A stretch of DNA of 64,000 nucleotides from Antedon mediterranea (lineage: Eukaryota > Animalia > Echinodermata): NCBI RefSeq assembly GCF_964355755.1, contig NC_092674.1, forward strand, positions 8,680,001-8,744,000, given 5' to 3'. Below the pieces are notes generated by a model that had not been told where the DNA came from, did not search any database, and saw only the letters and a list, made by a program, of their open reading frames with translations. Of the stretch, positions 17,001-54,301 are shown in pieces. Each line of letters opens with the position of its first letter. Within the stretch, counting starts at the first letter, position 1. The position numbers and the translations under genes were made by a program.

Positions 17001-20000
17001 TCCACAAATTATACGATTTTGATTGGCTAATAATATAAGGCGGACCTGGTCTAAAGCATCCTTCTCTAAACACAGAGAATCACAACATAAATAATATGAC
17101 ATTCCCCTTTTTGGGAAAAAGATTGTGTCAATCTTTCCAAAAATTTAACATTTAAAACCATTTTACTATAAACTATCTACAAATAACACCTCTATAATAT
17201 ATTATGCACGGCTTAATCCATCTGCATTTCCATTTAATGATCCTTTCTTGTAAATAACTTTAAATTTATATCCTTGTAAAAACAGAGCCCATCTCATAAG
17301 TCTAACATTGGCACCCTTCATTGAGTCCATCCATCTCAATGCCTGGTGGTCAGTATGAACTTGAAATTTAAATCTGTAAGTCTCTGCGGACACATCATAC
17401 TTTTCTAAGATTGCCTTCTTTAAGGTATCATAATCTACACATTCTTTTACGGTTAAGGATGCATATGCTGTCCTAGCTTTACCAGACAGTTCAGGTGCTA
17501 ACCTAGCGGACCACGTATTTTTATCCCAACCTGTGGCTTCTGCCAAGTGTTCAAATGTTCTAAAATATATATCAATATCATCTGATTCCTTCAAATTAGG
17601 AACCTTTACCTTCATTTCATCTACTATATTCCTAGCATTACTGTAGCTAGACCTATTTTCTAATTCCATCATTTTCACTCTTTCTTGTGATTCAATTTTT
17701 CTTTGCTCTATATCTGCTTCTAATCTTAATTGGTCTTGTTGGTATTGTAATTCTAACTTTTTGTTTTCGGCCTTGGCCTCGAACTTCATTCGAAAATATT
17801 CGAGCATCATATCTTTAGGCATACCGCCGGGTATTTCGGGCAAATCAATATCCCTAGCCATTTTATCATATATTTCATTGACTTGGTCAACCTCTTCTTG
17901 GTCAACCATTTCTTCCCTAGTATCTTTTTCTGACATAGTCTTATCTATATTTTTACCCGATCTTAAAGTTGTCATGCTAATAACAATTTTATTAATGAAA
18001 TATGTAAACTTATGTATACAAAATATGTTATAAAAGTATTTGTACCTTGATTCCATTCAGATATGTAAAAATATGAAATCCACATAAATTTTTAAATGCA
18101 ATACAATCTAAGACATTAATTAGACATTAAATAATATGACAGATGCCGAGAAAAAAAGATCGTACACAATTCATTCTAAATATAGTATCAGAACGTTTTC
18201 AGTCGGTCGCTCAAAAAGACTGCCGACAGAAGACCGTAATAAATACAGACCTAGTTTTTTTTGTCACATGGCATGAAACGCGATACTCTGGCGGCTGCCG
18301 TCTGATGACAATAAAACAGTAATTAAGATCGTGTACCTGGATTTTGTGTCACATGACATGAAACATAATACTCTCTCTCTAGCTCTAAACTGCTCACATG
18401 TTTTTCCCCTCCAAATTCTGGTCGAGCCTTTTTCTTTACACATGTCGTAATCATTTTAAAAGGCCTATGTTAAATCTTAATATGGAACATATATTTATTT
18501 TTCATATCCTAGCCTAGGCCTAGGTGTCGTTGTTTTTATATTTCGCTAACCCAAGGTAGGAGCGTTAAATAATTTATAGGCGGCCTAGGCCTAGATAGTG
18601 TAGGCCGCCGAAACTAGGCTAGCCTAGACTTTCTTTCTCTCTGTCTGAGCTGAGGTCCACAGGCCCGATGTCGTCTCATCGGCGAATTTCCGTCCAAATT
18701 AGGATAACCTAGGCCTAGTCTCAGATTTGTTGGTTCTGTGAAATGATACCAATGTTGTTTCACCATACAAGCAATACAGACGGGTTTTAATCACTCAGAC
18801 GCGTTTTCTATTGTTTTACCTACTAAACAGCGAAAACGGGTTTTAATCACACAGACGCGTCTTCGCCGCGATTGGGTAGCTCATGAATATTCATAATAGA
18901 TCGTTAATGAGGTTCAGCATTGGACAGACGCGTCTGATGGGTTGCAAGTTTTCAGACGCGTCTCTGTGGTCTGAAATAATTTGTAGATGGCGCCTTAAGG
19001 AGATACCTTCTTGACTCAACAAAGTGTCCTCTTAATAATGTTGTCCCTATAAACCTATATTTGTTCATTAAAAAGGAAACGTGTCCCTTTAATGGGTGGA
19101 CGGAAAATGTCCTTTATGCTATTTTCCCAAGTGTGTCGCCTGCTTTCGTCGTTTTTTCTGGCTTGAGCTATTGTACATCTTAAATGTCTTGACAAAAAAG
19201 TAGACAAAATACAACATTATTTTTAGCATAAAACGTTGTTTTTAAAAAAAAGGAGGCGACATCCAAAAAGCAAGCGTGCAGGGATGCTAAACATTAATAT
19301 TTATTTTGCCTTATATGAATGTGTTGGCATATACAACGTAGAATGTTATATTAAAGCAATCTAACAAGAGGCTGCTAGCTCCGGAGGTAAAAGGGTTTAT
19401 CTGTGGCTGCGACACGATCAGTTCCACACTCCCTAACAGACACCGTCTGACATAAGATCAATGGACTGTTATGAATTCCTACCTTGGCAAGGCAAGCTCA
19501 GTTCCACACTCCCTAACAGACACCGTCTGACATAAGATCAATGGACTGTTATGAATTCCTACCTTGGCAAGGCAAGCTCAGTTCCACACTCCCTAACAGA
19601 CACCGTCTGACATAAGATCAATGGACTGTTATGAATTCCTACCTTGGCAAGGCAAGCTCAGTTCCACACTCCCTAACAGACACCGTCTGACATAAGATCA
19701 ATGGACTGTTATGAATTCCTACCTTGGCAAGGCAAGCTCAGTTCCACACTCCCTAACAGACACCGTCTGACATAAGATCAATGGACTGTTATGAATTCCT
19801 ACCTTGGCAAGGCAAGCTCAGTTCCACACTCCCTAACAGACACCGTCTGACATAAGATCAATGGACTGTTATGAATTCCTACCTTGGCAAGGCAAGCTCA
19901 GTTCCACACTCCCTAACAGACACCGTCTGACATAAGATCAATGGACTGTTATGAATTCCTACCTTGGCAAGGCAAGCTCAGTTCCACACTCCCTAACAGA

Positions 20001-23000
20001 CACCGTCTGACATAAGATCAATGGACTGTTATGAATTCCTACCTTGGCAAGGCAAGCTCAGTTCTACACTCCCTAACAGACACCGTCTGACATAAGATCA
20101 ATGGACTGTTATGAATTCCTACCTTGGCAAGGCAAGCTCAGTTCCACACTCCCTAACAGACACCGTCTGACAATGACATAAGATCAATGGACTGTTATGA
20201 ATTCCTACCTTGGCAAGGCAAGCTCAGTTCCACACTCCCTAACAGACACCGTCTGACATAAGATCAATGGACTGTTATGAATTCCTACCTTGGCAAGGCA
20301 AGCTCAGTTCCACACTCCCTAACAGACACCGTCTGACATAAGATCAATGGACTGTTATGAATTCCTACCTTGGCAAGGCAAGCTCAGTGTCCTTTTGTAA
20401 AGCTTTTCTACTTTGTTAGTAGTTTTTGAATCACGCTTATAATAATCTTAAAAATACAGTAAAGTTGGAGTATAGTGTATTATATCAGATATTTTCTTCT
20501 CCAGATGCTGTGATGGCTCAGCCACACAATCTGCAACTTCTGGTGTGGTTAGGCCTTCAATGGGACGTCAGAACGGATGGTATTTCTCCAGACCTTGGCA
20601 CTTTCATAGAGAAATCTTTTGATAAACTACATTTTTCTTCCAACAACTTGAAAATCACAAGCGTTGATAACTTACGACTCCTTGATATTGAGGTATTGAA
20701 TATACTGTGTATTATTTTTTTAATGTAATTATTTCTGATCTCTTGAAACAAATCCAATTCTTGTGGATATCCACTTGATCCAAAAACTACCGGGGTAATA
20801 ATAATAATATTGACAGCACTTAGAAGTTTCACAACATTGGGAGCTTTATAAATCCAGGATAAATATTATTATTATTATTATTAAACAGCTGATGATCTGA
20901 CAAATTAATTAACCCTCCAAATATTTAATATCACATCAATCAACCTAATTAAACATTTAATAATAATAATAATCATTTTTTATATAGCGCTTATTGCACA
21001 ATGCTTCTAAGCGCTTCACATTATTACCCCAGTCATTTTTTTGGACCAAACACAATGGAAACATACTCCCATAATGCAGCTAGTAATCAGCGCAAAGTTG
21101 TGCCTTGATCTAACCGGCTACTTATTTATACACCTGGGCTGAGAGAGGCAAACATAAGTAAAGTATCTTGCCTAAGGATACAAGCAATGTGGCAAGAGTG
21201 GAATTCGAACCACGATCTCACAATCGGTAGTCCAACGTCCAACACACTGCGCAACACGCCCTAATAATACTTGTTAAATATGACTAAAGTTGCGTGTTCT
21301 TTTTGCCTTAGGCTTTCTTGTACGTTCTGGTAAAATCTGCAAAGACTAAAAGAGATACTTTACTAGCAGAAGGTCGCACCAGTCCAGACCAACCATCAGT
21401 CCTACCTGTGGCATTATGCCAGATGCTGTATACTGAAGAACAAGAGAAATGGTTCAAGGCTGTATGCGCACTGTACACTGGAAATGCTAAGTAAGTAATT
21501 TTGATATTATTCTACTGCAGTTACTGCTTTAACTATATATTTTATCTCTTAAAACCTGTTTATGCAATTATTTAACAAGCCTGTTTTTGTAATCATACAT
21601 ACTTTTTATTGCATTAAAACAACCTAAATTCATGTTATTTTTGTATGTAGTTACTGCAGTAACTTCAGAAGAATAATTTTGACATGATATTTTAGAATAT
21701 TTTTGAATTGCACTATAAACCGACTGGCGGTTTTTAACATTGTGTGATATTTTCTTTTTCCACATATAATCTTCCAACTTTAGATGTTAAAATGTTTATT
21801 TCCATAGGTCTGAAGAGCGGGCCAAAATTCGTCTTGCAATCCAGAAGGGCTTAGAAGCCATTCGTAATTCGAACCAGTTTAACATTGACACACCACTGCT
21901 GATCCATCTTGCTAAAACTTTCAGGACCAGGGTAAGTTTAAATGAAGACCTTGAATGATAAAGTCTTTCACTTAAGTGATATTCACATAGATGAGAGCAT
22001 TTGTAAATTCTAAGGGTGTTTCCCGAATTGCCTAAATTAGAAATACGGACACTGGGATTCATATTTTAGGACAAAATTCTTTTTTCTCTTTTTGGAATTT
22101 TTACAAGTTAAATCTTACTTTCTGTATAAATTTGAAGGAAAAAAAACACAAAATCTTTTAGTTTACAATAACATTTTCAAGAAAAATTTGTCATAGTATT
22201 CAAGGATGTTTTAGAATGTATTTTTGGTTTATCTTTTGTTGTTAATTAAATTTTTTGTATTTTAATACCAGATGCTGGAAGAGAAGAAAGAAAATGATGT
22301 TCCAGGCAATGAACAGTTTCTAGCCTGCCAGCGTCTTAGTGTACACTACTGGCAAGCTGCTAGTGAACACCTCAAGTTGTTAGCAAGGTATAGAACATTT
22401 AATAAGGATGACTAAAGCTTTATCTACACTATCAAACTAAAAAAAATTAACCTTAAGCCCTGTGTAAAATATGAAGCTGAAGTTGACAAACAAGCATGAA
22501 TGTGCAATACTCGGGGTACAGCGAAAGAAGCTGTAATGACGTCATAAGACCGGATGTAACGTCACATACACATCAATAACTGCACTACCAAATACAGCTA
22601 TACGGTACCATCTTCGAGACGTGATATGGCTGCATCCGGTATGAAATTAAAAAATGCGGCTCTATAGCTTTGAGGACATGTCCCTGTAGTATATTCATGC
22701 TAAATCCGAGCTCAATACTACAACGAATAAGGGAGGAGTATTTACCGATTACACAAAATAAGTATTTAAATAAATAATAAAAATAAGATATACTGTGTAT
22801 AATTATCATATTGCGTATACACTACTTTTCACCATAAAGTTTTTAAAAAAAGTTTCGCCCGGGCTCGAATCAGGTACCTTCTGCGTGTTAAGCAAACGTG
22901 ATAATCACTACGCCAAGAAGCCGCATATAACTACATAACGCTGTGGTGTGTGTCACACATTGTGGCTTCTTAATTAAACAAATTAATTAACAAAAATCCT

Positions 23001-26000: not shown

Positions 26001-29000
26001 GAAGCAGAAGGTGATGCGTATAATATAGATCCACATGTGTCACTAAAACTGCGAGACAACAATGTGTTCTCCACCCCAGCACGCAATATTGCACAGAGTA
26101 GAACACCAGAGGCTAGTATTTCTTCAGAATCCACACGTATTGATGAAGGATTTGCAGGCTTCTCTGGACTCAATCAACCAACACCGTTCTTGCAGCAAAA
26201 CCCCTCAACAGGAATGCCTCAAGTGGCACCAAATGGAAGTGCTGGCATGAAACCTTCCATCTACCAACCAAAACTTAACATACCACAACCAGCATCCTCA
26301 CCAGTTGCTATGAGTAAAGATGAAACTGCTCCAGAGAGGTCTGCCAGTGATGCTCCATTGTTACGTAAAATACTAATAGGGTCAGATGTTGACCCACCTC
26401 CTGCTGTTACACAATCTTTTCCTGCTTTTTCATCTGTTTCTTCAAACTCCAGGTTTGGCGGAGGAGACAAATTATCTGAAAAATCTGCTGTTTCGCCTAA
26501 TTTTACATTTGGTACTCGTCTGGAGTCTGCGAAAGCAAAAGAAGCTGAGCATACTCCAGTTTTCACTCCAAGTGCATCTTTTGGAAGTAAATCTGATGCA
26601 AGTGGAAACCCACAAACAGTAACCTCTGGCTTTTCATTTGGAGGTGGTAATATCTTTACCCCAGTGTCTACTAATCCAGCTTCAACCATCCAATTCAACC
26701 AACCAGCAGCTCAGCCCACAAGCAGTGGACCTTTTAGTCAGCTAGTAGCAGCTACTGGTTTCAAGGGTCTCAATTCTAACTCAACAAAGGAACCTACCAC
26801 CACTTCACCATTTGCTGGGCTTAGTTTAGGTGCTCAAACCCCACCAACAGCAGCACCTCAGCCTAGAAAGCCTACCGAAGGCTCTTTATTTTCAGGTCAG
26901 GAGTCTGTAGTATCCAGTTCAACCTCAAAAAGCAGCGGTTAGTTTTTTGTTCTATTTTTCTTTTATTGCTTAAATAAGGGAGTACATAAATGTTAATTGA
27001 TCAACAAAATCTTCACCAATATGTTGAATAATAAAAACCTGCATCTTCTCCACTACAGTAGGTAAAAAAGGATGGAGTTACATATTGAAAATCTTCAAAA
27101 TAGTATATTGTTATGCAGTATATAGATATATCTAATGATTTGAAACTGTTTTCCTTAAGAAGATCTGACAAGCAAGACCCAGTTGGCTTGTGCTGCAATG
27201 AACAATTTTCTTAACCCCATTTAATTGTACTGTCTTATTTTTTAAATCAGAGGAGGATGATGTTATATTGATTTATGAAAGAAAACCAACTCCAGCACAG
27301 ATTGCGATGGCTCTCAAATTGAAGCTGCCTCCAACATTCTATCTCTATGAATACAAAAAACCGTGCCCTGGTTGTATTGGTTGTGAAGATATCAATCTGG
27401 CAATGTTGTATAAAAAGGAAAACAAAGTTTTCAAAGATGCCACTCAGGCCAGTACTACTATCTTGCAAGACCCTAAACCAACACAAGAATGTAAGTTTTT
27501 CATATATACAGAAAAATGTTTTTGAAAGGTATTTTTAGACCTTGTTTATATTTAATTTTTTATATATATATATATTCTTTTTCAGCAACTTCTACAGAAC
27601 CATTGATGTTTGGAGGAGGATCGTCCACCTCTTTGACCTTTGCGTCTGTCACAGCTGGCAAACAAAATACTCCAGATTTTATGAAACAACGTAATTCACT
27701 TTTTACTTCTAACTTTTTACAATTAACTCGGTACTCATTTGTTAATAGAACAACTTAAATAATAAAGTTCACTATTATTTATTATTCATTATTTCAGAAT
27801 CTGCAAAGGCATTCTCTTGGACAAGTGCTGGCGCACAGCTGTTTAGCTCTAGTGCAGGAGGTGATGATGAGTACGACCCACATTATGAAGCTATTGTGAC
27901 TTTGCCTGAAGTTGTCGATCTTAAAACTGGAGAGGAAGACGAAAAATGCCTTTATAAAGATCGTGCCAAACTGTACCGATTCAACAAAGATATAAACCAG
28001 TGGAAAGAGCGTGGAGTTGGAGATGTCAAATTCATGCAGAATAAGAACACTGGTAGGATACGTGTGCTAATGCGTCGTGATCAGGTATTGAAAGTGTGTG
28101 CTAACCACATGATCACAGCAGACCTTGATATGAAAGCTATGCAGTCATCAGATCGTGCCTGGGTCTGGAGTGCACTTGATTTCTCTGAAGGAGAAGCGCA
28201 AATGGAGCAATTGGCAATCAAGTTCAAGAAGCCAGAAATGGCAAAGGAATTTAAAGAGAAGTTTGATGAGTGTAAAGTCCTTGTTAAAGAAGCAGAAACA
28301 AAAGCAAATGAAAAGCCGGAAACTAAAAAGATCCCAGAAAAACCAAAAGAGGTTTGTACATTATTTAGCTTTAATGGGGAACTGAAAGTGTCTTCTGCCT
28401 GATAATGTTTTACAAACATTTTTATATAATCTTCGTTAAATGAAAATGATAATACATATACTTTATAATTATCCATAATTTACGATTATTAATTAGTTTT
28501 TGAATGTGTAGTGTATAATGTAGTTATCAGAGATTATGATATTTGTCTTCAAAGAATTTCATATGTTACATTAATGTTTCTATTTTAAACTTTTCCTGAT
28601 TAGACTTTTGCTGACAAGTTCAAACCAAAAGCAGGAACATGGATATGCGACACTTGTCTTGTTAACAATCCTCCTGACACAGTTAAATGTCTTGCTTGTG
28701 CTACACTCAAACCAGGAGCAGCACCACCTCAATCGGCAGCTGCATCAACTAAACCTTCCGGAGCTACTGGATTCAGGTTTGATGGTCCAACTAGTTCACC
28801 ACAAACTTCAAAATTCAGTTTTGGTGGAGGTTCTGGTCCTGCAAGTGATGTTAAATCTCAGTCTGGTTTTTCTTTTGGAAAGCCAGCAAATGTTGCAGAC
28901 AGTAAACCTTCAGAATTTTCTTTTGGAAAGTCCACTGGTGGTGCTGCTGCTCTCCCCTCCACAGGCTTCTCATTCGGACAAGCTAGTGGTACGCCTACCT

Positions 29001-33473: not shown

Positions 33474-33953
33474 ATCACTACATTCTGATCCCTTTCCTGC
33501 CCACACTGTACTGTACTATACTTTAATCGTTCTGAGGGGAACCACCACCACTAGGCAGGAATTTATAAAAGTTTAAATTTCATTTCAAGGTAAGCCTATG
33601 TTATTTGGTAAAAAGATTTTAAGTTGTATTGTTATTGCTCCTGTTACCGGTCCTTCCCGTACTTCCAAATTAGTACTCTAGCCGAGTTTAGGCCTACATT
33701 TAGGCAGCGCCTGCTTAGACCCATCAAGGTATTACAGTAGTACTGTAGGCGTGCTAAACGACCGCAGTGTATGCAACGCCCAAATGATTCGCTAATCCGG
33801 CCAAATATTTATCATGTTTGGCTTTATATTTTTAACTATAAACGGTCTATATAAGCTATCTATGAGAACTAATAAATTAGTAATAATTAGGTTATTTATA
33901 ATAATAGTCTAGACCTACCTTACTTTTCACAGGATTTTTTCAACTGCCATGGG

Positions 33954-35473
33954 ATGGCATCTAAAGAATTGATTGAAGTAATTGATGCAGCAGCACTTGA
34001 GTGTCCTTTATGTATGAACCACTTCACAAGCCCAAAGATTCTAGCATGTGTTCATTCATTCTGTCTTGAGTGTCTTGAGAAATGGATGAAGAAAAGCAAT
34101 GGTGTACTCAGCTGCCCAACATGTCGTGAAGTCTGCCAGATTCCAGAAGGAGGACTTCAAAACTTGAAGAATAACATATTCATCAGTGGCTTGTTGGACT
34201 ATGTCACTACATTAGAAGAGAAGACCGCTCCAACTTGTAGTCTTTGTAGTACAGCAACATGTTTCTGCTGTCGAGATTGTGATGAACAAATTGCACGTCT
34301 TGCAGAGATATCCATGCAAAAATGAAGATATCACAACATCATCGCATCATCACGATGGAAGAATATACTGTTATCAACCCTGTGGAACATTTGGCTTCTA
34401 AATCTGTATATTGTTGCAACCATAATATGCCACTTCATTTCTTCTGTGGCAGCTGTAAGGTTCCAGTATGTGTAGGCTGTACATTAGTGGAACATCCAAT
34501 ATCTGATGGTCATAACATAATAAATATAGAAACTGCATTTGAGTCATTCGCAAAACTTTCAGAAAGTTTTATAAATAAAGCAGAAGAAAATTTGATTAAG
34601 TTTCATGACATTGCAAAGCAACTCAAAATAAAAGAGGAATTGGAAATGTCTAATTACAAAGAGTGTGAAGTAAAAATCACAGAAGAAGCTAACAAGGCAC
34701 ACCAATTGATTGATCGTTATAAGAAAGATCAACTCCAAGACCTTGAATCATCTCACCAACACAATCTTAAGTTAATCAGTGCCAATGAAAGTGAGGTTGA
34801 ATTGGCTATTGCTAAATTTTCTAGTACACAGGGAATTGTACGTACCTTGATACATAGCCCAAACCATGCTATGGCATTAAGATCAAGTTCTGATGTTACC
34901 AAACGAATGGACGAGCTTGTAGAACAAGATAACATTTCTGATGATATTCTCACACCAAATTTGGTGAAATATAAGAATACCAGATTTGAAGTGAAGACTG
35001 TTGATATTTTACATGGCAATGATGATTATGAAGCGATCATGACTTTACCAAAAGCCAGTCTAAAGACTGAAGATAGAATCAAAAACTGGTTATGGAAAGA
35101 TCTTGCCAAGTTGTGGACTTTCAACAAGGATACATATCCAAAGTGGAAAGAACATGAAGGTCATGTTGTCACATTTTGTCATACAAACTCTGGTAAGATG
35201 CAAATGTTAGTATTGAAAATTGAAATCTGTATTAGTCAGACAGTCACAGCAGACAGTGAGATGAAAGCAGTGAAGTCATCAGGACATGCCTGGGTCTGGA
35301 GTGATGCGGAAATGAAGAAATATGCACTCATATTCAAGGAGCCACAGTTCGCAAGAAAAATTAAAGATGATTTTGACGAGTATAAAAAGCTTGCTAATGA
35401 AGTAGAAGTAACAGCAAATGAGAAGCAGCAAACAAAGAAACAACCAAAAGAAACAAACAGAAAAGGTTTGTAA
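33954..35473 (+). pseudogene. TRIM-RanBD chimera copy 1: RING, B-box1, B-box2, coiled coil, diverged Ran-binding domain; one 1-nt frameshift near 34290
   Basis: C3HC4 RING (CPLC..CVHSFCLEC..CPTC) and B-boxes; the C-terminus aligns to RanBD1 (YEAIMTLP..KDLAKLWTFNKD..AWVWS). The two ORFs join if one base is restored (CDEQ-x-CTSCRDIH). Likely 5'UTR intron 33590-33932. Confidence 0.85.
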
Positions 35474-35599
35474 ATTTATTACTTTATTAAGTACCTTTAT
35501 CTCAAACCCATTGCTTAAACATAGAAAGGGGAGAGAGGGATGTTAAGTTAATGAATGAAATTCTATATTCACAAATTAATTAATCTATTTTAATCATTC

Positions 35600-38572
35600 T
35601 GTTCCGGACAGTCTACTAGTGGTACCACTGCCTCCTCTCGAACCACAAGCTTCCGATTTCGACAGACTAGTGTTTTGCCTACCTTTTCTTTTTGTAAAAC
35701 TACTACAGCTATAAAACCTTGCTTCTCTTGGCAGCCAACAACTGCTAGTGACAGCCAACAAACTACTGGAATTTCATTTGATGTTGATTCAACTAGTAAA
35801 GAAGTGCAACAGAAAGCATTACCTGATTCAGCTGGTGTTAATTTTGGCAAATCAATGGTAAATAAAATGTAACTTTCTTCCCAGATACAGTATGTTCTAT
35901 AAGATAATGGTGATGGTTTATTTTATAATTAATTTGAACTGTAGTTATTCAGAGATAATGACAGTCTTCAAAGGATTTCATATGTTACATTAATGTTTCT
36001 ATTTTAAACTTTTCCTGATTAAACTTTTCCTGACAAGTTCAAACCAAAAGTAGGAACATGGACATGCGACACTTGTCTTGTTAATAATGCTCCTGACACA
36101 GTTAAATGTCTTGCTTGTGCTACACTCAAACCAGGAGCAGCACCACCTCAATCAGCAGCTGCATCAACTAAACCTTCCGGAGCTACTGGATTCAGGTTTG
36201 TCGTTCCAACTAGTTCACCACAAACTTCAAAATTCAGTTTTGGTGCATGTTCTGGTGCATGTTCTGGTCCTGTAAATGATGTTAAATCTCAGTCTGGTTT
36301 TTCTTTTGGAAAGCCAGCAGATGTTGCAGACAGTAAATCTTCAGAATTTTATTTTGGACAGTCCACTGGTGGCTCATTCGGACAAGCTAGTGGTAAGCCT
36401 ACCTCAGGCTTTTCCTTTGGTAAATCTGATGATGGTAACAAAGCAAACTCAACAACTAGCAAGCCATCTGGGTTCTCTTTCGGTCATACAAGTGACAGTA
36501 GTCAGCAACCACCAACTGGTGGATTTTCATTTGTTGCTGATTCAAGTAAAACAGCATCCCCAGTCCAACCGAAAGCAGTACCTATTGTCACTACTGATGA
36601 TACTGCTGAAAAATCAATGGTAAACAATTTCAATATTCTTTCAATATATTTTGTTTCGTAAAACAATATCACTATTTTGCTTTGATGACCAATTGGGAGA
36701 TAATTTCTTTTTGATGTGCCATGCTTCCTACAAAACACTTCCCAACTCTTTTATTATTTAGTAAATAAATATAATACCTTTATTAATTATCTTAAAACTT
36801 GGTATTTCAGATTTTAGCAGAACGATTAAAACCTAAACCCGGATCCTGGTCTTGTCCTACATGTTACTGCCAGAATTCTACCGAACAGAAGAAATGTCCA
36901 GCATGCCAAACCTGCCAACCGGGTAGTCAACCAGAAGCATCTAGTTCAACTGCACCTTTTGGACAGTCCACTGGAGGTGCTTCCCTCCCCTCCACAGGCT
37001 TCTCATTCGGACAAGCTAGTAGTAAGCCTACCTCAGGCTTTTCCTTAGGTAAATCTGATGATGGTAACAAAGCAAACTCAACAACTAGCAAGCCATCTGG
37101 GTTCTCTTTCTGTCATACAAGTGACAGTAGTCAGCAACCACCAACTGGTGGATTTTCATTTGTTGTTGATTCAAGTAAAACAGCATCCCCAGTCCAACCG
37201 AAAGCAGCACCTATTGTCACTACTGATGTTACTGCTGAAAAATCAATGGTAAACAATTTCAATATTCTTTCAATATATTTTGTTTCGTAAAACAATATCA
37301 CTATTTTGCTTTGATGGCCAATTGGGAGATAATTTCTTTTTGATGTGCCATGCTTCCTACAAAACACTTCCCAACTCTTTTATTATTTAGTAAATAAATA
37401 TAATTAATTATTAATTATCTTAAAACTTTGTATTTCAGACTTTAGCAGAACGATTAAAACCTAAACCAGGATCCTGGTCTTGTCCTACATGTTACTGCCA
37501 GAATTCTGCCGAACAGAAGAAATGTCCAGCATGCCAAACCTGCCAACCGGGTAGTCAACCAGAAGCATCTAGTTCAACTGCACCTTCTAGCAGTTCTTTC
37601 CAATTTGGCAGCAGTTCAGCTTTCGGACAATTGCAAAGAAGTAGCCAAGAAGGTGCTGTAGCACCAACATCACCTACAAAGACTTTCTCATTTGGTTCTT
37701 CTGGAAAGGCATTTTCACAATACTCTTTTGGTGAAGGTGGTGAAACTACTGACGCCACTTCAAAACCTGTCTCAACTGGATTTACCTTTGGGGCGACACC
37801 AGCATCCAGTGGGTTCTTATTTGGAAATCTTTCATCACCGGAAAAGACCGGCAGCCCAAGTTGTAAATTTTCTGAGATACCAAAATCATTCACCTTTCAA
37901 TTCAAAATAAATCCTCAGGAAGCAGCAAATGTACCACCAGCATCTCCAACAAAATCACTTGGTATTATTCATTTTGAGCCAGTTGTTCAACTTGATCTGG
38001 TGGAGCTTACAACTGGAGAGGAAGATGAAGAAACAGAGTTTTGCCATCGAGCAAAGATGTACCGATTTAACAAGAAAACCAATGAATGGAAAGAACGTGG
38101 TTGCGGTGACATTAAAATACTAAGACATAAAGTAACTGGACTATACCGCCTTTTAATGAGACGAGAGAAAGTTCTGAAGTTATGTGCAAACCATTTCATT
38201 TTCCCAGAGATAGTTCTTCGACCAAATTCAGGTTCTGATCGGTCTTGGGTCTGGACAGCAATGGATGCTTCTGATGATGGACAAGTAAAATCTGAATTGC
38301 TGGCAGTTCGGTTTAAGACTGCTGAGACTGCTACGAAATTCAAAGCAGCATTTGAAAATGCAAAGGAAGCTGTCAAGAAGATTAAAAGTATTAAGAAATC
38401 TGAGCCAGCAGAAGTAAAAGAGACACAGGAGATAAATAAAGATGAAGTGAAGGAGATCGAAAATGAAGAAGGAACAGAATACCACAAAATGGTGGAATTT
38501 AAAGAAGATGAAGAATATGAAGATGACGACGACGATGATTATGAAATAATTAAATTTATCTTTGATTTATAA
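35600..38572 (+). pseudogene. Duplicated RanBP2 ZnF/FG/RanBD2 exons downstream of TRIM copy 1
   Basis: Degenerate FG exon ~35600-35857; ZnF1 exon 36023-36619 (acceptor AG mutated to AA); hybrid ZnF2/FG exon 36811-37248; ZnF2-RanBD2 exon 37439-38572 cut off in the acidic tract. Intron sequence is also duplicated. Confidence 0.85.
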
Positions 38573-41360
38573 AAGAAAAAAGGGTTTACGAATTACTTTC
38601 TGAAATCAAATGCATAAGAATGGGTTTACTAAATTACTTTCTGAAATCAAATGCATAAGAATGGGTTTACTAATTACTTTATCATATTATATAATTTTCT
38701 AATAGATGTTTTTTATACAGTTTTCTAAATACATGAACATTTGTGGAGTTTTTAAGTTCAACGGAGAGTTTATTCCATATTAAAATTTCTTTATTTGATA
38801 ACACATTTGTTTGAACATAGTTTTCCTTAAATTGGTAATAAAATGTTCCATGCTGTCTGGTATTATAGGTATGAATATCTTTATTTTATTTAAAATACCG
38901 TTGGATTATAGAAGGAAGTTGTTGTGGGCTTTGTACATTATTATGGCAGTATTTAATTCAATTACATCAAATATATTTAATGTTTTAAATGTATACAAAG
39001 TGGGTTTAGTGTGAGCTAAATAGTCAGCTTTATAGACAATTCTAATTACCCTTTTTTGTAACAAAAATAAATGCTGTAATGTACTTTTATATGAGTTACC
39101 CCATATTTCACAACAATAATTAATGTATGGTAAAACTAATGAATTATACAGAATAAATAATACACTACTTTCAAGTAGTTTTCTTAATCTATAGCCTAAG
39201 TTATACTGATGTTTTTAGCAATTTTTGTGTTTAACATGTTTTTTCCAATTAGCTTACAATCAATTTCTATTCCAAGAAATGTAGTGCTATAAACCCGGTC
39301 AATTTCAACATCGTCTATTGTTACTTTGGTTTCACATGTAACGTTTTTGGAATGGAAGATTATATAATTTGTTTTTTAACGTTTAACGAAAGTTTATTCA
39401 CTGCAAACCATATGTGAAGTTTATTTAACTCATTACTGACAATACTGCAAACTTGTTTCACATTTTTGCCAGAGCAAATAAGATTTGTACCATCAGCAAA
39501 TAAGATAAAATTAAGCAATGGCGACACACGATAAATATCATTTATGTACAGCAAAAATATGGAGGGCCCCAAAATTGAACATTGCGGTACACCGCATATA
39601 ATTTCTATAGGATCCGATTTGATAAATAACTTTTTAACCACCTTGAAGCCACACTTCGAATTCCATAATATTCTAATTTTTTTAGTAAGATGTCATGGTC
39701 AATGGTGTCAAAAGCTTTCTTGAGATCTATAAAGACGCCAACCGAGTAATTAGACTTGTCTATTGCAAATGTAATGTCTTCATTAAGTTTAAATAACTTA
39801 TTTGGTTTTCGCCCAAATTATTCTACAACCCATGCCTTAATAAGCCATGGGTTGTAGAATAATTTGGGCGAAAGCCAAATTGTCCACTATATAATAAATT
39901 GCGTTTGTTTATAAATGTCATTAATCTATTGTTAAACATCTTTTCTAATATTTTTGAAAATTGCGGAAGTAAAGAGATTGGCCTATAGTTGTTAAAATCT
40001 TGTTTATCACCAGATTTATAAACAGGTATTACCTTTGCACTTTTGAGCATATTTGGAAATGTTCCACATTCTAATGACAGGTTACATATACGCGTTACAG
40101 GTTGAACAATTTCATATACAGGTATTACTCTTTTAACCATATACATATCGATATTATCAAGTCCATAAGAATATTTACTTTTAAAATTTAGAACTTCCCT
40201 TAAAACTTCCTCACATGAAACATTGTCTAAAAATAATGATTGTTGTACACTTTCATTCATATATGATCTAAAACTTGTATCATCAATATGTGGAATTTGC
40301 TTAGCTAAATTAGGTCCAACATTTGAAAAACCATTTGCAATATTTTTGGGATGAGACACAATTTCATTTCCCTGTTTAAATTCTCTTGGTAAATTATTTG
40401 TGGTATTCTTTCTGTTTGCGAAATCATTTAATATCTTCTAAGTACCCTTGATGTTCTTTTCTTTCTCTTTCAAGATTTTACTGTAGTATGTTTTTCTGCA
40501 TTTCTAAGAATTCTTGTTTGTTTTTATATGTTTTGTATTTATTTGCTGAAGCTAAACTTTGGTATTTTTAAGTCCCGTAGTAAACCATGGTTTATTTTCT
40601 CTTTTTTTAGATATATTAATTTTTTTCAATGGCAAATTTTTATTATACAAATCAGTAAAAACATTTATGAATTGATTATATGCCAAATCCGGGTCATTTA
40701 CATTTTCCAATATTTGCCAATTTGTATTTCTTAGGTCAGATTAAATTTTTTTATATTCTCGTCATTAATTACTCTTTTAAAAATAAAATTGGGTTCTTGT
40801 ATAGTTTCCACATTATAGTCAACAAGAGAAAAAACAAGTTGATCACTTATATCATTTATCAAAATACCACTTTTCATGGAGACTTCAATCTCTGGCGTAA
40901 ATATGTTGTCTATAATAAGCGAAGCACTAGTCTCAGTTACCCTTGTTGGTTTTGTTATAAGAGGGAAGGTGCCATTACTAATAATATATCCACAAAAAGA
41001 CTTGTGTACTTGTTACTTTCATATTTCAAAAGATCAATATTATAATCACCACATATGTATAATTGTTTATCTCTCTTTTCATGAAAAATGTTCAAATCCA
41101 AATCACTACCAGGTGCTCGGTAAATACAACTGACGATTATATTTCTTTTTGTATCATTGACAATTTCAACAGAAACACATTCGCAGCAATTTTTCTTTCT
41201 AAATGATACATTTTGTATTGTTTTGTGTTTAATTGAGCTTTTATAAACAATGCTATCCCACCCCCAGATTTGTCTTCCCTCGATGTAAAGTATGATTCAT
41301 AGCCATTTAAACTAAAGACATTTTCTTTGCTATCACTTGCCCATGTCTCAGATATTGCTG
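38546..41360 (-). mobile_element. Degenerate non-LTR retrotransposon (CR1/L2-group LINE)
   Basis: Minus-strand remnants: endonuclease AISETW (~41340-41360); RT NYRPISLLPQFSKILEK, QFGFR, GVPQCSILGP, LFADGT; several frameshifts. Confidence 0.9.
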
Positions 41361-44959: not shown

Positions 44960-45992
44960 CCTTTTATGTAAATGGTGACGTTTTTTTCCATATAAAATAA
45001 AAGCTATACATTTTAAAGTAAAACTGGTGTGTGTATGTATGGCTACGTATCAGTTGGCAAATGAGATTGTTTTCTAATGTATTGAAAAGCTCGCAATCCT
45101 GTCGGTGAAAGCATCTAACAGTTGGAATGTATAAGGCTTAATTTAGGCTAGTGTCTTACCGTAATCATTCACAACAAGTAGCTGATAAATACCAAGTATT
45201 TATAAGAGACACTAGCTGCCCAACATGTCGTGATGTCTGCCAGATTCCAGAAGGAGGGCTTGAAAAGCTACAGAACAATATGTTCATCAATGGCTTTATT
45301 GGACTATGTTACCACATTGGAACGGAAGACCGCTCCAAATTGTAGCCTTTGTAGTACAGAAGCAAGTTTTTTCTGTCGTGACTGTGATGAGTTATATTGT
45401 ACAAGTCACAGAAATGACCACACAAAAATGAAGATGTCACAACATCATTGCATTATTACAATTGAAGAATATACTGTTATCAATCCTGCATAGTACATAA
45501 GCTGTTGACTGTTTCTACATTAGCTGGTGTTGATTTTTATTTACTACATAAGCTGGAGGTTTTACTACATAAGCAGAAGATTGCTCTACATTAACGGTTT
45601 TTTCGACATTAGCTGGCGTTTTCTACATTAGCGGTTGTAACAAGCCTTGTGTGGGGTATGTATGATAATAATATATGCAGAAATAAGAAAAGTATAATAT
45701 GCATATGATATTGAATGTAGTGGACACATCAAAACATTAAAACTAATGTCTCTTATAAATACTTGGTATTTATCAGCTACTTGTTGTGAATGATTACGGT
45801 AAAACACTAGCCTAAATTAAGCCTTATACATTCCAACTGTTAGATGCTTTCGCCGACAGGATTGCCCGCTTTTCAATACATTAGAAAACAATCTCATTTG
45901 CCGACTGATACGTAGCCATACATACACCAGTTTTACTTTAAAATGTATAGCTTTTATTTTATATAGAAAAAACGTCACCATTTACATAAAAG
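44960..45992. repeat. ~250-bp inverted repeat pair (44960-45211 / 45748-45992) enclosing a TRIM fragment
   Basis: The arms are reverse complements with few mismatches. Confidence 0.9.
45213..45490 (+). pseudogene. TRIM fragment (end of RING plus B-box1), near-identical to 46973-47245
   Basis: SCPTCRDVCQIPEGGLEKLQNN / CSLCSTEASFFCRDCDELYC with one frameshift. Confidence 0.9.
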
Positions 45993-46816
45993 GGGGAATC
46001 CCGGATTATTTAGTTTTAGCGGCAGCGCCTGCATGGCATGCGTGCAGCTCAATGCGATTGTTTCTTCCAGCCAAAACAAATATCGGTTAATTTTTCAACC
46101 AATAAAAGTGCGCATGATCAGTTATTACCAAACAACCAGATGCCCAATCACATTGCAACAATTTTCACGTCGCATTTATCCAATAATTATCTGATTTGAA
46201 TGAGAAAAAAAAGAATTTCCGCGTAATTGATTGAACCCTCTTCTTGAATATTTGGACAAACAAATAAACAATGCATCGCGCGTCATAGCATGTTTATTGA
46301 ATTCTTCAACTACAGTTTAAGTTTTAAAAAATCAAGCTAAGATACATAAGTTGATAGAAATACAGATCTATTTATCAACATAGTACTGTAATGTTGAACG
46401 CATTTTTGTTTGCGCTAGCAACCACGCAGCGCCATCTATCATTGTGACGTCACACTGCAGAACTCTATAAATCCTGACGTATGCAGTGCCCTACTGCATG
46501 GAAAACATTACTGTTGCACGAAAACAGCGGATTGCTCATTCTTCTGATATATACTGTATTCTTTGCCCTATATATAGGGTACTACTGTACTAGGAACTAC
46601 TACTAGGCATGCTGAAACGACGCAGGGTATGGAACGCCCACATTATGCGCCAACTAGGCCAAATATTTATGTTATATGTTAATTTCGCTTGGTATTTCTA
46701 ATTATGTATAAACTTTGCTCTATCAATGGAAAGATCTATAAGAAATGTATGAGTATAATAATTAGTTTAATTTATTATATAAAACTTTTACTTTTCACAG
46801 GATTTTTTCATCTTCC

Positions 46817-49000
46817 ATGGCATCTAAAGAAGTAATTGAAGGAATTGAATCTGCTGCACTTGAGTGTTCTTTATGTATGAACCGCTTTACAAGACCAAAA
46901 GTTCTGACATGTGTTCATTCATTCTGTCTTCGATGCCTTGCGGAATGGGTGAAGAAAAGCGATGGGGTGCTCAGCTGCCCAACATGTCGTGATGTCTGCC
47001 AGATTCCAGAAGGAGGGCTTGAAAAGCTACAGAACAATATATTCATCAATGGCTTATTGGACTATGTTACTACATTGGAACAAAAGACCGCTCCAAATTG
47101 TAGCCTTTGTAGTACAGAAGCAAGTTTTTTCTGTCGTGACTGTGATGAGTTATACTGTACAAGTCACAGAAATGACCACACAAAAATGAAGATGTCACAA
47201 CATCATTGCATTATTACAATTGAAGAATATACTGTTATCAATCCTGTAGAGCGTTTGGCTTCTAAATCTGTATATTGTTGCAACCATAATATGCCACTTC
47301 ATTTCTTTTGTGGCAGCTGTAAGGTTCCAGTATGTGTAGGCTGTACATTAGTGGAACATCCAATATCTGATGGTCATAACATAATAAATATAGAAACTGC
47401 ATTTGAGTCATTCGCAAAACTTTCAGAAAGTTTTATAAATAAAGCAGAAGAAAATTTAATTAAGTTTCATGACATTGCAAAGCAACTCAAAATAAAAGAG
47501 AAATTGGAAATGTCTAATTACAAAGAATGTGAAGTAAAAATCACAGAAGAAGCTGACAAGGCACACCAATTGATTGATCGTTATAAGAAAGATCAACTCC
47601 AAGACCTTAAATCATCTCACCAACACAATCTCAAGTTAATCAGTGCCAATGAAAGTGAGGTTGAATTGGCTATTGCTAAATTTTCTAGTACACAGGGAAT
47701 TGCACGTACCTTGATACATAGCCCAAACCATGCTATGGCATTAAGATCAAGTTCTGATGTTTCTGAACGAATGGACGAGCTTGTAGAACAATATAACATT
47801 TCTGATGATATTTTCACACCAAATTTGGTGAAATATAAAATTAACACACACCAAACCATCATTGTTAACGCCGCTGACTTTAGAATTGAACATGCTGATG
47901 CCCCAAATTTAACAAATCCTCAACCTGTTATGTATTACCCACCACACACACCAATGTTTCCCCCTCAATTCATACCAGGCTATCTACCGGAAATTCCAAT
48001 ACCTGGATTGGGGGAACAGCAATACATACCTTCCATGATGAGCTCAACCCCGGGACCACACTATCAAGGAGAGGAAGCATACGAAGCAGAAGGTGATGCG
48101 TATAATATAGATCCGCATGTGTCACTAAAACTGCGAGACAACAATGTGTTCTCCACCCCAGCACGCAATATTGCACAGAGTAGAACACCAGAGGCTAGTA
48201 TTTCTTCAGAATCCACACGTATTGATGAAAGATTTGCAGGCTTCTCTGGACTCAATCAAACAGGAATGCCTCAAGTGGCACCAAATGGAAGTGCTGGCAT
48301 GAAACCTTCCATCTGCCAACCAAAACTTAACATATCACAACCAGCATCCTCACCAGTTGCTGTGAGTAAAGATGAAACTGCTCCAGAGAGGTCTGCCAGT
48401 GATGCTCCATTGTTACGTAAAATACTAATAGGGTCAGATGTTGACCCACCTCCTGTTGTTACACAATCTTTTCCTGCTTTCTCATCTGTTTCTTCAAACT
48501 CCAGGTTTGGCGGAGGAGACAAGTTATCTGAAAAATCTGCTGTTTCGCCTAATTTTACATTTGGTACTCGTCTGGAGTCTGCGAAAGCAAAAGAAGCTGA
48601 GCATACTCCAGTTTTCACTCCAAGTGCATCTTTTGGAAGTAAATCTGATGCAAGTGGAAACCCACAAACAGTAACCTCTGGCTTTTCATTTGGAGGTGGT
48701 AATATCTTTACCCCAGTGCCTACTAATCCAGCTTCAACCATCCAGTTCAGTCAATCCTCTTCTATATTCAACCAACCAGCAGCTCAGCCCACAAGCAGAG
48801 GACCTTTTAGTCAGCTAGTAGCAGCTACTGGTTTCAAGGGTCTCAATTCTAACTCAACAAAGGAATTTTTGCTGGGCTTAGTTTTAGGTGCTCAAACCCC
48901 ACCAACAGCAGCACCTCAGCCTAGAAAACCTACCGAAGGCTCTTTATTTTCAGGTCAGGAGTCTGTAGTATCCAGTTCAACCTCAAAAAGCAGCGGTTAG
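46817..49000 (+). CDS. TRIM-RanBP2 chimera copy 2: intact RING, B-box1, B-box2, coiled coil fused in frame to the RanBP2 Pro/FG exon (727 aa if unspliced; donor at 48996)
   Basis: Uninterrupted ORF with AG acceptor at 46799-46800 before the ATG. The junction near 47839 (LVKYK|INTHQTII) switches from TRIM sequence to a near-identical copy of 25758-26937. Confidence 0.9.
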   Translation: MASKEVIEGIESAALECSLCMNRFTRPKVLTCVHSFCLRCLAEWVKKSDGVLSCPTCRDVCQIPEGGLEKLQNNIFINGLLDYVTTLEQKTAPNCSLCSTEASFFCRDCDELYCTSHRNDHTKMKMSQHHCIITIEEYTVINPVERLASKSVYCCNHNMPLHFFCGSCKVPVCVGCTLVEHPISDGHNIINIETAFESFAKLSESFINKAEENLIKFHDIAKQLKIKEKLEMSNYKECEVKITEEADKAHQLIDRYKKDQLQDLKSSHQHNLKLISANESEVELAIAKFSSTQGIARTLIHSPNHAMALRSSSDVSERMDELVEQYNISDDIFTPNLVKYKINTHQTIIVNAADFRIEHADAPNLTNPQPVMYYPPHTPMFPPQFIPGYLPEIPIPGLGEQQYIPSMMSSTPGPHYQGEEAYEAEGDAYNIDPHVSLKLRDNNVFSTPARNIAQSRTPEASISSESTRIDERFAGFSGLNQTGMPQVAPNGSAGMKPSICQPKLNISQPASSPVAVSKDETAPERSASDAPLLRKILIGSDVDPPPVVTQSFPAFSSVSSNSRFGGGDKLSEKSAVSPNFTFGTRLESAKAKEAEHTPVFTPSASFGSKSDASGNPQTVTSGFSFGGGNIFTPVPTNPASTIQFSQSSSIFNQPAAQPTSRGPFSQLVAATGFKGLNSNSTKEFLLGLVLGAQTPPTAAPQPRKPTEGSLFSGQESVVSSSTSKSSG

Positions 49001-52977: not shown

Positions 52978-54129
52978 AGTTTTTAGACTGGCTATTGCTT
53001 CGTAATCATCATCGCCATTTAAGATATTAATGAAGAGTCACAACATCATTGCATTATTACAATAGAATATACTGTTATCAATCCTGTAGAGCGTTTAGCT
53101 TCTAAATATGTATATTGTTGCAAACATAATATGCCACTTCATTTCTTTTGTGGTAGCTGTAAAGTTCCAGTATGTTTAGGATGCACACTTGTTGAACATC
53201 CTATATCTGATGGTCATAAAATAATCAATATAGAAAATGTATTTGAGCTATTCACAAAACTTTCAGAAAGTTTTAATTGCAAAGCAGCTGAAAGAGAAAG
53301 AGGAATTAGAAATGGTGAATTACAAAAAGTGTGAAGCAAAAATCACAGAAGAAGCTGACATCAATTGATTGATCATTATAAAAAAGTCCAACTGCAATCT
53401 CTCGAATCATCTCACTGGGTCCGTGGAGGGCCTAATCCAGTTAAACTTGATGACCAGTAATAATACATTTAACATTTAATCAGTGCCACTGTAAGTGATG
53501 TTGAATTAGCGATTGCTAAATTTTCCAGTATGCAGGGAATTGCACGTACCTTGATACATAGGCCAAACCATGCTATGGCACTAAGTTCAAGTTCCGATGT
53601 TTCTAAACAAATAGGCCAACTTGACAAACAACGTAACATTTCTGATGATATGCTCACATTAAATTTATCTGAATACAATAATACCAGATTTGAAGTGAAG
53701 CCTGTTGGTATTTTACACGGCGATGATTATAAAGCAGTAACCATGCCTAAAGATGGTCTAAAAACTGAAGAGGAAAGTGAAAACTGTTCTTTGAAAGATC
53801 TTACCAACTTATGGTGTTTTAATAAGGATGAAAATAAGTGGATAGAATATGACGGTGATACTGTCAAATTTATTCATACAAAGAAAACTGGTAGGATGGA
53901 AATGCAGATACTGAACATCAGTGAAAACAGCATAGTCACAGCAGACAGTAAGATAAAGGCTATTCCATCATCAGACCATGCCTGGGTTTGGAGTGAAGCA
54001 GGAATGAAGAAATATGCACTAATATTTAAGGAGCCAATATTGTTAGCACGAGAATTCAAAGAAAATTTGATAAGACGAAGAAAAAGCTTGTTAATAAAGT
54101 ACTTGAGGAAGAAAGGGTTCCACTTCTAG
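52978..54129 (+). pseudogene. TRIM-RanBD chimera copy 3, 5'-truncated and frameshifted
   Basis: B-box2 (CKHNMPLHFFCGSCKVPVCLGC), broken coiled coil, then diverged RanBD (KDLTNLWCFNKDENKW..DHAWVWSEAGMKKYALIFKEP) collinear with copy 1. Confidence 0.88.
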
Positions 54130-54301
54130 ACCCCCTTGAGCCAGAAGAAAAGGTTTGTAAATCCAGTACCATTATTGAAAATGGAAAATAAAAATAATAT
54201 TATCATAAGTGATAAAAAATTTACATAAATACCTAAAATTGATGACTCGAAATTTAGTTATTCACAGATTCAGTTATTCTATTTTAAATTTCTTTTATTA
54301 G

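Follow-up and report, generated by a model that had tools for sequence, protein, structure and literature searches.

The crinoid Antedon mediterranea carries a chimeric gene in which a TRIM protein, an immune-type ubiquitin ligase, is joined to parts of the nucleoporin RanBP2. The chimera is real, its first Ran-binding domain (RanBD) is both constrained and remodelled, and it is to be placed with those TRIM proteins whose targeting region has been exchanged. The link between the RING, B-box and coiled coil part (RBCC) and RanBP2-derived domains is seen in one exon of the DNA, in contigs of sequencing run X9 that cross the domain and join downstream exons, and in a RefSeq model. Tentatively, and with a confidence slightly short of even, we favour the explanation that a crinoid TRIM fused to a duplicated segment of the neighbouring RanBP2 gene and that the first RanBD of the fusion, predicted to keep its fold, has likely lost Ran binding and likely acts as a remodelled module for a ligand or bait.

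Genomic setting

The window, i.e. the whole stretch of 64,000 nucleotides analysed here, carries the RanBP2/Nup358 gene with a TPR exon near position 1233 and three RanBDs, the last one ending at 31498. About 25 kb of tandem partial duplicates, interspersed with TRIM sequence, are located 3' of RanBP2, and at least three TRIM/RanBP2 junctions along with many partial duplicates lie inside 30 kb. The RanBD that served as reference for all comparisons is termed the parent.

27881..28351, + strand: parent RanBD, first of three in the window's RanBP2 (Pfam, gene model; Ran_BP1 177.9 bits)

The window's RanBP2 apparently possesses only three RanBDs, compared with five Pfam stretches in the proteins of amphioxus and Ptychodera. 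An IR-like exon precedes the first RanBD, a stop directly follows the third, and a splice donor lies just past this stop, in the gene as well as in a duplicate. Several repeats were observed in the region. At 19418-20388, within a RanBP2 intron, an 80-base unit is repeated about 12 times in tandem (98-99% identity), and a frame resembling an LTR-retrotransposon gag/pol remnant by eye is present at 17202-18056 (minus strand), also in a RanBP2 intron. Broken endonuclease/reverse-transcriptase frames, LINE-like by eye, lie between duplicated blocks at 38906-41296 (minus strand). A fragment of TRIM copy 2 (98%) at 45214-45488 is flanked by an inverted repeat (44960-45215 / 45743-45993).

The fusion exon and its sister copies

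TRIM copy 1 unites the RBCC and the diverged RanBD in a single coding exon.

33933..35465, + strand: large coding exon of TRIM copy 1 (RING, B-box 1, B-box 2, coiled coil, diverged RanBD)
34002..34124, + strand: RING finger (Pfam zf-C3HC4 family, at most 38.8 bits)
34289..34290, + strand: frameshift by one missing base, in the window allele's B-box 1
34403..34528, + strand: B-box 2 (Pfam zf-B_box, 29.5 bits)
35024..35416, + strand: diverged RanBD (Pfam, collinearity with the parent)

An AG acceptor before 33933, the main ATG at 33954 and a donor after 35465 delimit the exon. The order RING, B-box(es), coiled coil is present, the coiled coil being assigned by homology only, and the TRIMs closest to this RBCC are of crinoid origin (57-63% identity). 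The C-termini of the sister TRIMs yielded no significant match to a filamin repeat that could stand for the displaced ancestral domain. A contig of run X1 is identical to 34868-35950 (0 differences) and spans the junction of coiled coil and RanBD, which is thus not an assembly artefact.

The frame from RING to RanBD is broken in the window allele. The deletion at 34289 recurs in an X1 contig that matches the window exactly; the missing base is present in a contig of run X5 (same organism, other sample) and in one of X7 (organism B), so that the frame is intact near 34289 in these runs, no single contig spanning it as a whole. Given the intact base in other contigs, the frameshift marks either a null allele or, if several near-identical paralogues exist, one of them that is dead, and the window allele of copy 1 is a probable null. 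The RefSeq model starts 3' of the frameshift. Two trivial explanations were discarded. An assembly error, for the fusion as for the frameshift, is excluded by the exact X1 contigs (X1 may be the source sample), and the intact X5 frame does not stem from copy 2, as the contig is of copy-1 type with 10 differences versus 57 for copy 2. Copy 1 also features an out-of-frame ATG 5 bases upstream of the main start, opening a 7-codon upstream frame (33949-33972) that is absent in copy 2.

Two further TRIM copies are situated downstream.

46817..49000, + strand: copy 2, an intact RBCC in frame and in one exon with a recent copy of another RanBP2 exon
53030..54152, + strand: copy 3, a pseudogene with B-box 2, a broken coiled coil and a second diverged RanBD (53728-54068)

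The copy 2 open frame comprises 744 codons from stop to stop and represents a second, younger TRIM-RanBP2 fusion at the locus; the RanBD copy downstream of it is truncated by a 197-base deletion at about 51248. Differences between copies 1 and 2 are unevenly spread, with 49 sites in 34124-34389 and only 8 in 34390-34858 (copy 2 47250-47720), a sequence pattern that suggests gene conversion or a recombinant origin. Copy 3 lacks a RING and has coiled-coil deletions of 38 and 7 bases, the former also found in an X1 contig, as well as an insertion of two bases, near 54068, within the C-terminal helix of its RanBD. The statement of the first-pass annotation that the frame is open in both RanBD copies did not hold in view of this insertion and of the copy 1 frameshift near 34289. 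A probable null allele of copy 1 next to a dead copy 3 fits a birth-and-death family.

Downstream exons and forms in organism B

The diverged RanBD had initially been taken for the TRIM C-terminus. It is probably internal instead: the donor at 35465/35466 is kept, and RanBP2-derived exons follow.

35450..35450, + strand: extra base of the window allele, placing the donor in phase 1
35612..35857, + strand: diverged FG exon, an approximately 65% identical old copy of the RanBP2 FG stretch (frame open, none of the 4 FxFG motifs retained)
36038-36619 and 36811-37248, + strand: two younger RanBP2-derived zinc-finger/FG exons
37439..38572, + strand: last exon of the RefSeq model, with zinc finger, FG, intact RanBD and acidic tail

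The RefSeq model XP_071950715.1 (Antedon mediterranea) corresponds exactly to five stretches of the window; this predicted model uses a phase-1 acceptor at 35710 within the diverged FG exon. The intact RanBD at 37970-38368 has WKERG, scores 156.7 bits for Ran_BP1 and shows an omega of 0.25 against the parent (p 0.006). As the same gene model contains this intact RanBD, the protein as a whole need not have given up Ran binding. The downstream zinc-finger exons and the intact RanBD are about 90-95% identical to their source, compared with 65% for the diverged RanBD. Being much younger, they were not its partners for most of its history.

Organism B, a related organism, contributed further copies of the domain. 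In its samples, contig ends in the parent domain agreed with the window at 30 of 30 and 29 of 30 letters. For the 3' half of the diverged RanBD, no fewer than two open forms are seen, two in each of three samples, with in-frame indels in the domain; collapsed contigs mask differences between the forms over 35114-35329. Copy 1 and form 1 of organism B differ at 18 residues. The base at 35450 is missing from both forms in X6 and X7, which shifts the donor to phase 0, and the organism-B donors are in frame with the downstream exons. The window allele, spliced to 35612 or left unspliced, would run into a stop a few codons past the RanBD.

Contigs of run X9 start 5' of the diverged RanBD, cross the domain and join downstream exons. 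One connects the donor at 35465 to 35612 with 20 of 22 letters matching; the evidence of a second, which agrees with the 36038 acceptor over five letters, is weaker. We read these joins as splices, X9 carrying no RNA label on record. Contigs of X6 and X7 continue into the intron past the donor. Run X5, whose RNA nature is a guess, has no coverage of 34943-35179 and is uninformative either way, and pieces from X10 and X11 were left out owing to a depth of 2-5 or short length.

Identity, fold and Ran contacts of the diverged RanBD

The collinearity with a RanBD seen in the first-pass annotation was borne out: 35024-35416 aligns along the first RanBD of the window's RanBP2 with about 65% DNA identity. 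Pfam Ran_BP1 (PF00638) recognized copy 1 with 32.5 and copy 3 with 31.5 bits at a cut-off of 23.2, and RanBP2 and RanBP1 were the top matches in a sequence search of the PDB. A word-based search with the RanBD region gave zero matches among 65 candidates, and a full scan of representative proteins returned the window's own model as sole close relative.

The motif changes were likewise found as described, with copy 1 having WKEHE and copy 3 WIEYD in place of WKERG, MRRDQVLK and CANH absent, and LWxFNKD, AWVWS and YALIFK retained. The losses are common to copies 1 and 3. Arginines dropped from 8 in the parent to 2. Greatest variation in the middle of the domain, another early observation, was confirmed for the middle third in post hoc comparisons of copy 1 with copy 3 (19/33 vs 27/73 changes, p 0.057) and with organism B (10/38 vs 8/87, p 0.024); in the structural model, variation peaks at residues 41-78.

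The absence of a PH-like fold, which would have refuted the initial interpretation, was not encountered. AlphaFold2 with a 53-row alignment predicted a seven-strand barrel plus helix at pLDDT 80.3, compatible with PH/EVH1, a fold driven by the canonical RanBDs in the alignment and thus showing compatibility only. Folding from the single sequence was uninformative (pLDDT 39.9). Foldseek ranked RanBD complexes at the top and Homer EVH1 lower, and an Atlas feature search pointed to EVH1/WH1/RanBP1 clusters at 0.81-0.87, which are leads only. The residues F34, W41, W94 and a new W32 (parent numbering) probably lie on what we take to be the EVH1-type peptide groove, a placement that partly follows known EVH1 structure.

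A RanBD grips Ran through three elements, its N-terminal extension, the EWKER motif and a set of basic residues, and EWKER forms salt bridges with the effector loop of Ran (PMC3045386). In the diverged RanBD the N-terminal extension is mostly kept; EWKER, which reads KWKEH in copy 1 and KWIEY in copy 3, and the basic residues are eroded. Judged from its sequence, the domain likely no longer binds Ran. The same paper reports that the RanBD of RanBP3, devoid of nearly half of its contacts, still binds Ran weakly. A similarly weak binding that tunes transport complexes would agree with the WKE and most of the N-terminal extension retained by copy 1, but we regard it as highly improbable: no more than 5 of the 22 invariant polar residues survive, deletions affect the RRDQ and DFS regions, and copy 3 is without the WKER lysine as well.

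Decay or selection

Neutral change was simulated from the parent in 1000 runs per setting and evaluated against a profile built from 141 of 381 RanBDs in 120 proteins, with contact positions proxied by family conservation. Copy 1 contains 0 stops in 141 codons where 5.7-5.9 are expected under neutrality (P 0.002; copy 3, P 0.008). Its hydrophobic core is kept at 30 of 32 positions compared with 24.1-24.9 in the simulations (P 0.005-0.019). Form 1 of organism B gave the same result, which is not independent, and core hydrophobicity in copy 3 (22/28) was not significant. All five indels in the copy 1 domain are in frame, against 9 of 32 in non-coding duplicates; the count stems from a protein-guided alignment, and a DNA alignment breaks one 9-base gap into 8+1. 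For invariant polar positions, the 5 of 22 kept in copy 1 gave P 0.013 without CpG hypermutation and 0.076 and 0.123 with it, a Fisher test of invariant versus variable polar sites in copy 1 gave p 0.11, and the 9 of 21 kept in copy 3 were not significant. CpG decay could account for part of the polar loss, since 7 of 8 parent arginine codons contain CpG.

Codon models, in our own implementation, gave an omega of 0.79-0.96 for parent versus copy 1 and of 0.44-0.48 (p 0.016-0.030) for copy 1 versus copy 3. A further comparison of the latter pair gave 0.50-0.54, below 1 (p 0.005-0.031) and higher than that of the RBCC of the same genes at 0.21 (p 4e-6 to 0.032). Of six RBCC comparisons, four yielded 0.22-0.32, while the values of the remaining two, 0.42 and 0.57, were not significant. 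The copy 3 branch was under purifying selection (0.27-0.31; p 0.002 for 0.27-0.28). For the copy 1 branch, omega was 1.8-2.3 (p 0.26-0.40), and with organism B added the copy 1 clade reached 1.11-1.25, not different from 1. Copy 1 versus organism B showed 19 N/3 S changes for form 1 and 24 N/7 S for form 2 (p 0.18-0.77), based on 33 of 40 listed differences, 7 being left out as belonging to other paralogues, one run or the tail; 5 further differences lie outside this list.

Plain neutral decay, the outcome that would have undone the initial interpretation, does not describe this pattern, in which stops are avoided, the core is kept and omega lies below 1. The same observations argue against the rearrangement of TRIM and RanBP2 pieces as sole explanation, namely a hotspot that joined them repeatedly and left a fusion that was once translated and is now decaying without a new function. 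Such a hotspot would account for the clustered junctions and partial duplicates, and for the frameshift, the extra base 35450 and the out-of-frame ATG of copy 1; copy 3 no longer functions, omega reaches 0.92 in the RanBP2 part of copy 2, and a premature stop is also reported for zebrafish ftr52 (PMC3137616). Frameshifts, however, are avoided within the domain, organism B has open and apparently spliced forms, and the copy 1 frameshift is missing from the X5 and X7 contigs. We consider decay at a hotspot unlikely.

The first-pass annotation had further proposed diversifying selection on a variable surface analogous to PRY-SPRY loops. Neither part was demonstrated. Point estimates for the copy 1 lineage range from 0.8 to 2.3, none significant, and without a clock omega never significantly exceeded 1. 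In PRY-SPRY domains variation sits in the loops; here, changes fall in strands as often as in loops, both between copies 1 and 3 (21/49 and 12/31) and between copy 1 and organism B (10/52 and 5/37). On the stem before the split of copies 1 and 3, omega was 3.3-15.5 (p 0.023-0.28) under a clock with the parent omega fixed at 0.05-0.3, p falling below 0.05 in 3 of 12 settings, with 0.45-0.68 on later branches; the test needs a clock, which the unequal branches do not obviously obey. A stem burst followed by slower branches is the shape expected of neofunctionalisation, here with borderline support from sequence comparison. Neofunctionalisation of the diverged RanBD is plausible and unproven.

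Part of these data would also suit a functional fusion gene in which the diverged RanBD amounts to no more than a folded spacer, with selection on it relaxed, and the downstream zinc fingers, FG and intact RanBD would direct the TRIM to Ran/transport-receptor complexes. The constraint and WKERG of the downstream RanBD, a copy 1 clade omega indistinguishable from 1 and a diverged FG exon that is likewise without motifs yet open are in line with it, and a spacer within a translated protein would retain core and frame as well. The age difference between the domain and the downstream exons speaks against such partners during most of its history, and so does the copy 3 branch, which evolved under purifying selection; no FG exon of the diverged type was found behind the copy 3 RanBD in the window comparison. 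A mere spacer appears rather unlikely; if it is one, the locus still documents clearly how domains are shuffled at a hotspot of rearrangement.

Proposed function

In the explanation we favour, i.e. a remodelled ligand module on a TRIM scaffold, an early burst common to copies 1 and 3 would have removed the Ran contacts, after which the domain would have evolved under loosened purifying selection. F34, W41, W94 and W32 would leave a peptide-binding groove. The fusion TRIM would ubiquitinate targets bound via this domain, by analogy to TRIMCyp most likely proteins that make contact with the nuclear pore on its cytoplasmic side, e.g. those of viral particles.

A bolder version holds that TRIMs of crinoids, fish, amphioxus and annelids independently captured Nup358 segments as pore decoys and that positive selection drove the crinoid RanBD to exchange Ran for a pathogen ligand. 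We give it little credence. The decoy idea extends, by analogy, two reports: an engineered fusion of TRIM5 and the Nup358 cyclophilin inhibits HIV-1 (PMC3234246), and HSV1 capsids dock via Nup358 (PMC4429625). If true, TRIMCyp would have an invertebrate equivalent at this locus, equipped with a novel recognition domain.

Comparison with known systems

The targets of TRIM ligases are decided by captured C-terminal domains, and TRIMCyp is a capture that yielded an antiviral factor. The chimera shares with TRIMCyp and TRIM5-Nup358Cyp an RBCC scaffold on which a captured host domain replaces PRY-SPRY; the cyclophilin of TRIMCyp binds capsid unchanged, whereas the diverged RanBD lost its native contacts. 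With RanBP3 it has in common the RanBD fold and eroded contacts in EWKER, the N-terminal extension and the acidic tail. Unlike it, RanBP3 is a nuclear CRM1 cofactor with weak Ran binding and not a TRIM fusion (PMC3045386).

Our literature search retrieved a single report of a TRIM with a RanBD, zebrafish ftr52, and neither a crinoid TRIM-RanBP2 fusion nor a remodelled RanBD on a TRIM. Boudinot et al. (2011, PMC3137616) describe ftr52 as an RBCC-RanBD-CypA fusion; the alleles they sampled carry a premature stop close to the N-terminus. Both systems combine a TRIM tripartite motif with RanBP2-derived exons, a RanBD beside the coiled coil, a transcript that is spliced (in the crinoid apparently so) and a premature stop. 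As described there, ftr52 ends in a cyclophilin and descends from finTRIMs, whereas the crinoid RBCC is closest to crinoid TRIMs, shares one exon with its RanBD, and this RanBD is heavily remodelled. A Pfam scan of the RefSeq model detected no cyclophilin domain, and by this test the crinoid fusion is not a member of ftr52. That it arose independently is suggested by its two halves, each of which has its nearest matches among crinoid sequences.

Among 268 proteins searched with the RBCC, the matches were the four crinoid TRIMs, the model of the window itself and TRIM-RanBP2 models of three further animals: amphioxus, Owenia and masu salmon, the last in two isoforms. XP_064832631 (masu salmon), XP_066299091 (amphioxus) and CAH1780692 (Owenia) are each a single predicted protein in which RanBP2 domains come after RING, B-box and coiled coil; they are gene models only and could be merged neighbouring genes. 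Their RanBDs adjoining the TRIM parts are canonical (126-199 bits on our RanBD profile), unlike the diverged crinoid domain. The amphioxus model retains a filamin repeat. The Owenia model includes RBCC, RanBDs, Nup98 GLEBS/FG and RanBP2 parts, its last RanBD being degenerate (37 bits), and is either a real multi-nucleoporin fusion or a product of merged genes. With a probably independent echinoderm case and candidate parallel fusions in three lineages, the concept of a nucleoporin as TRIM bait becomes testable.
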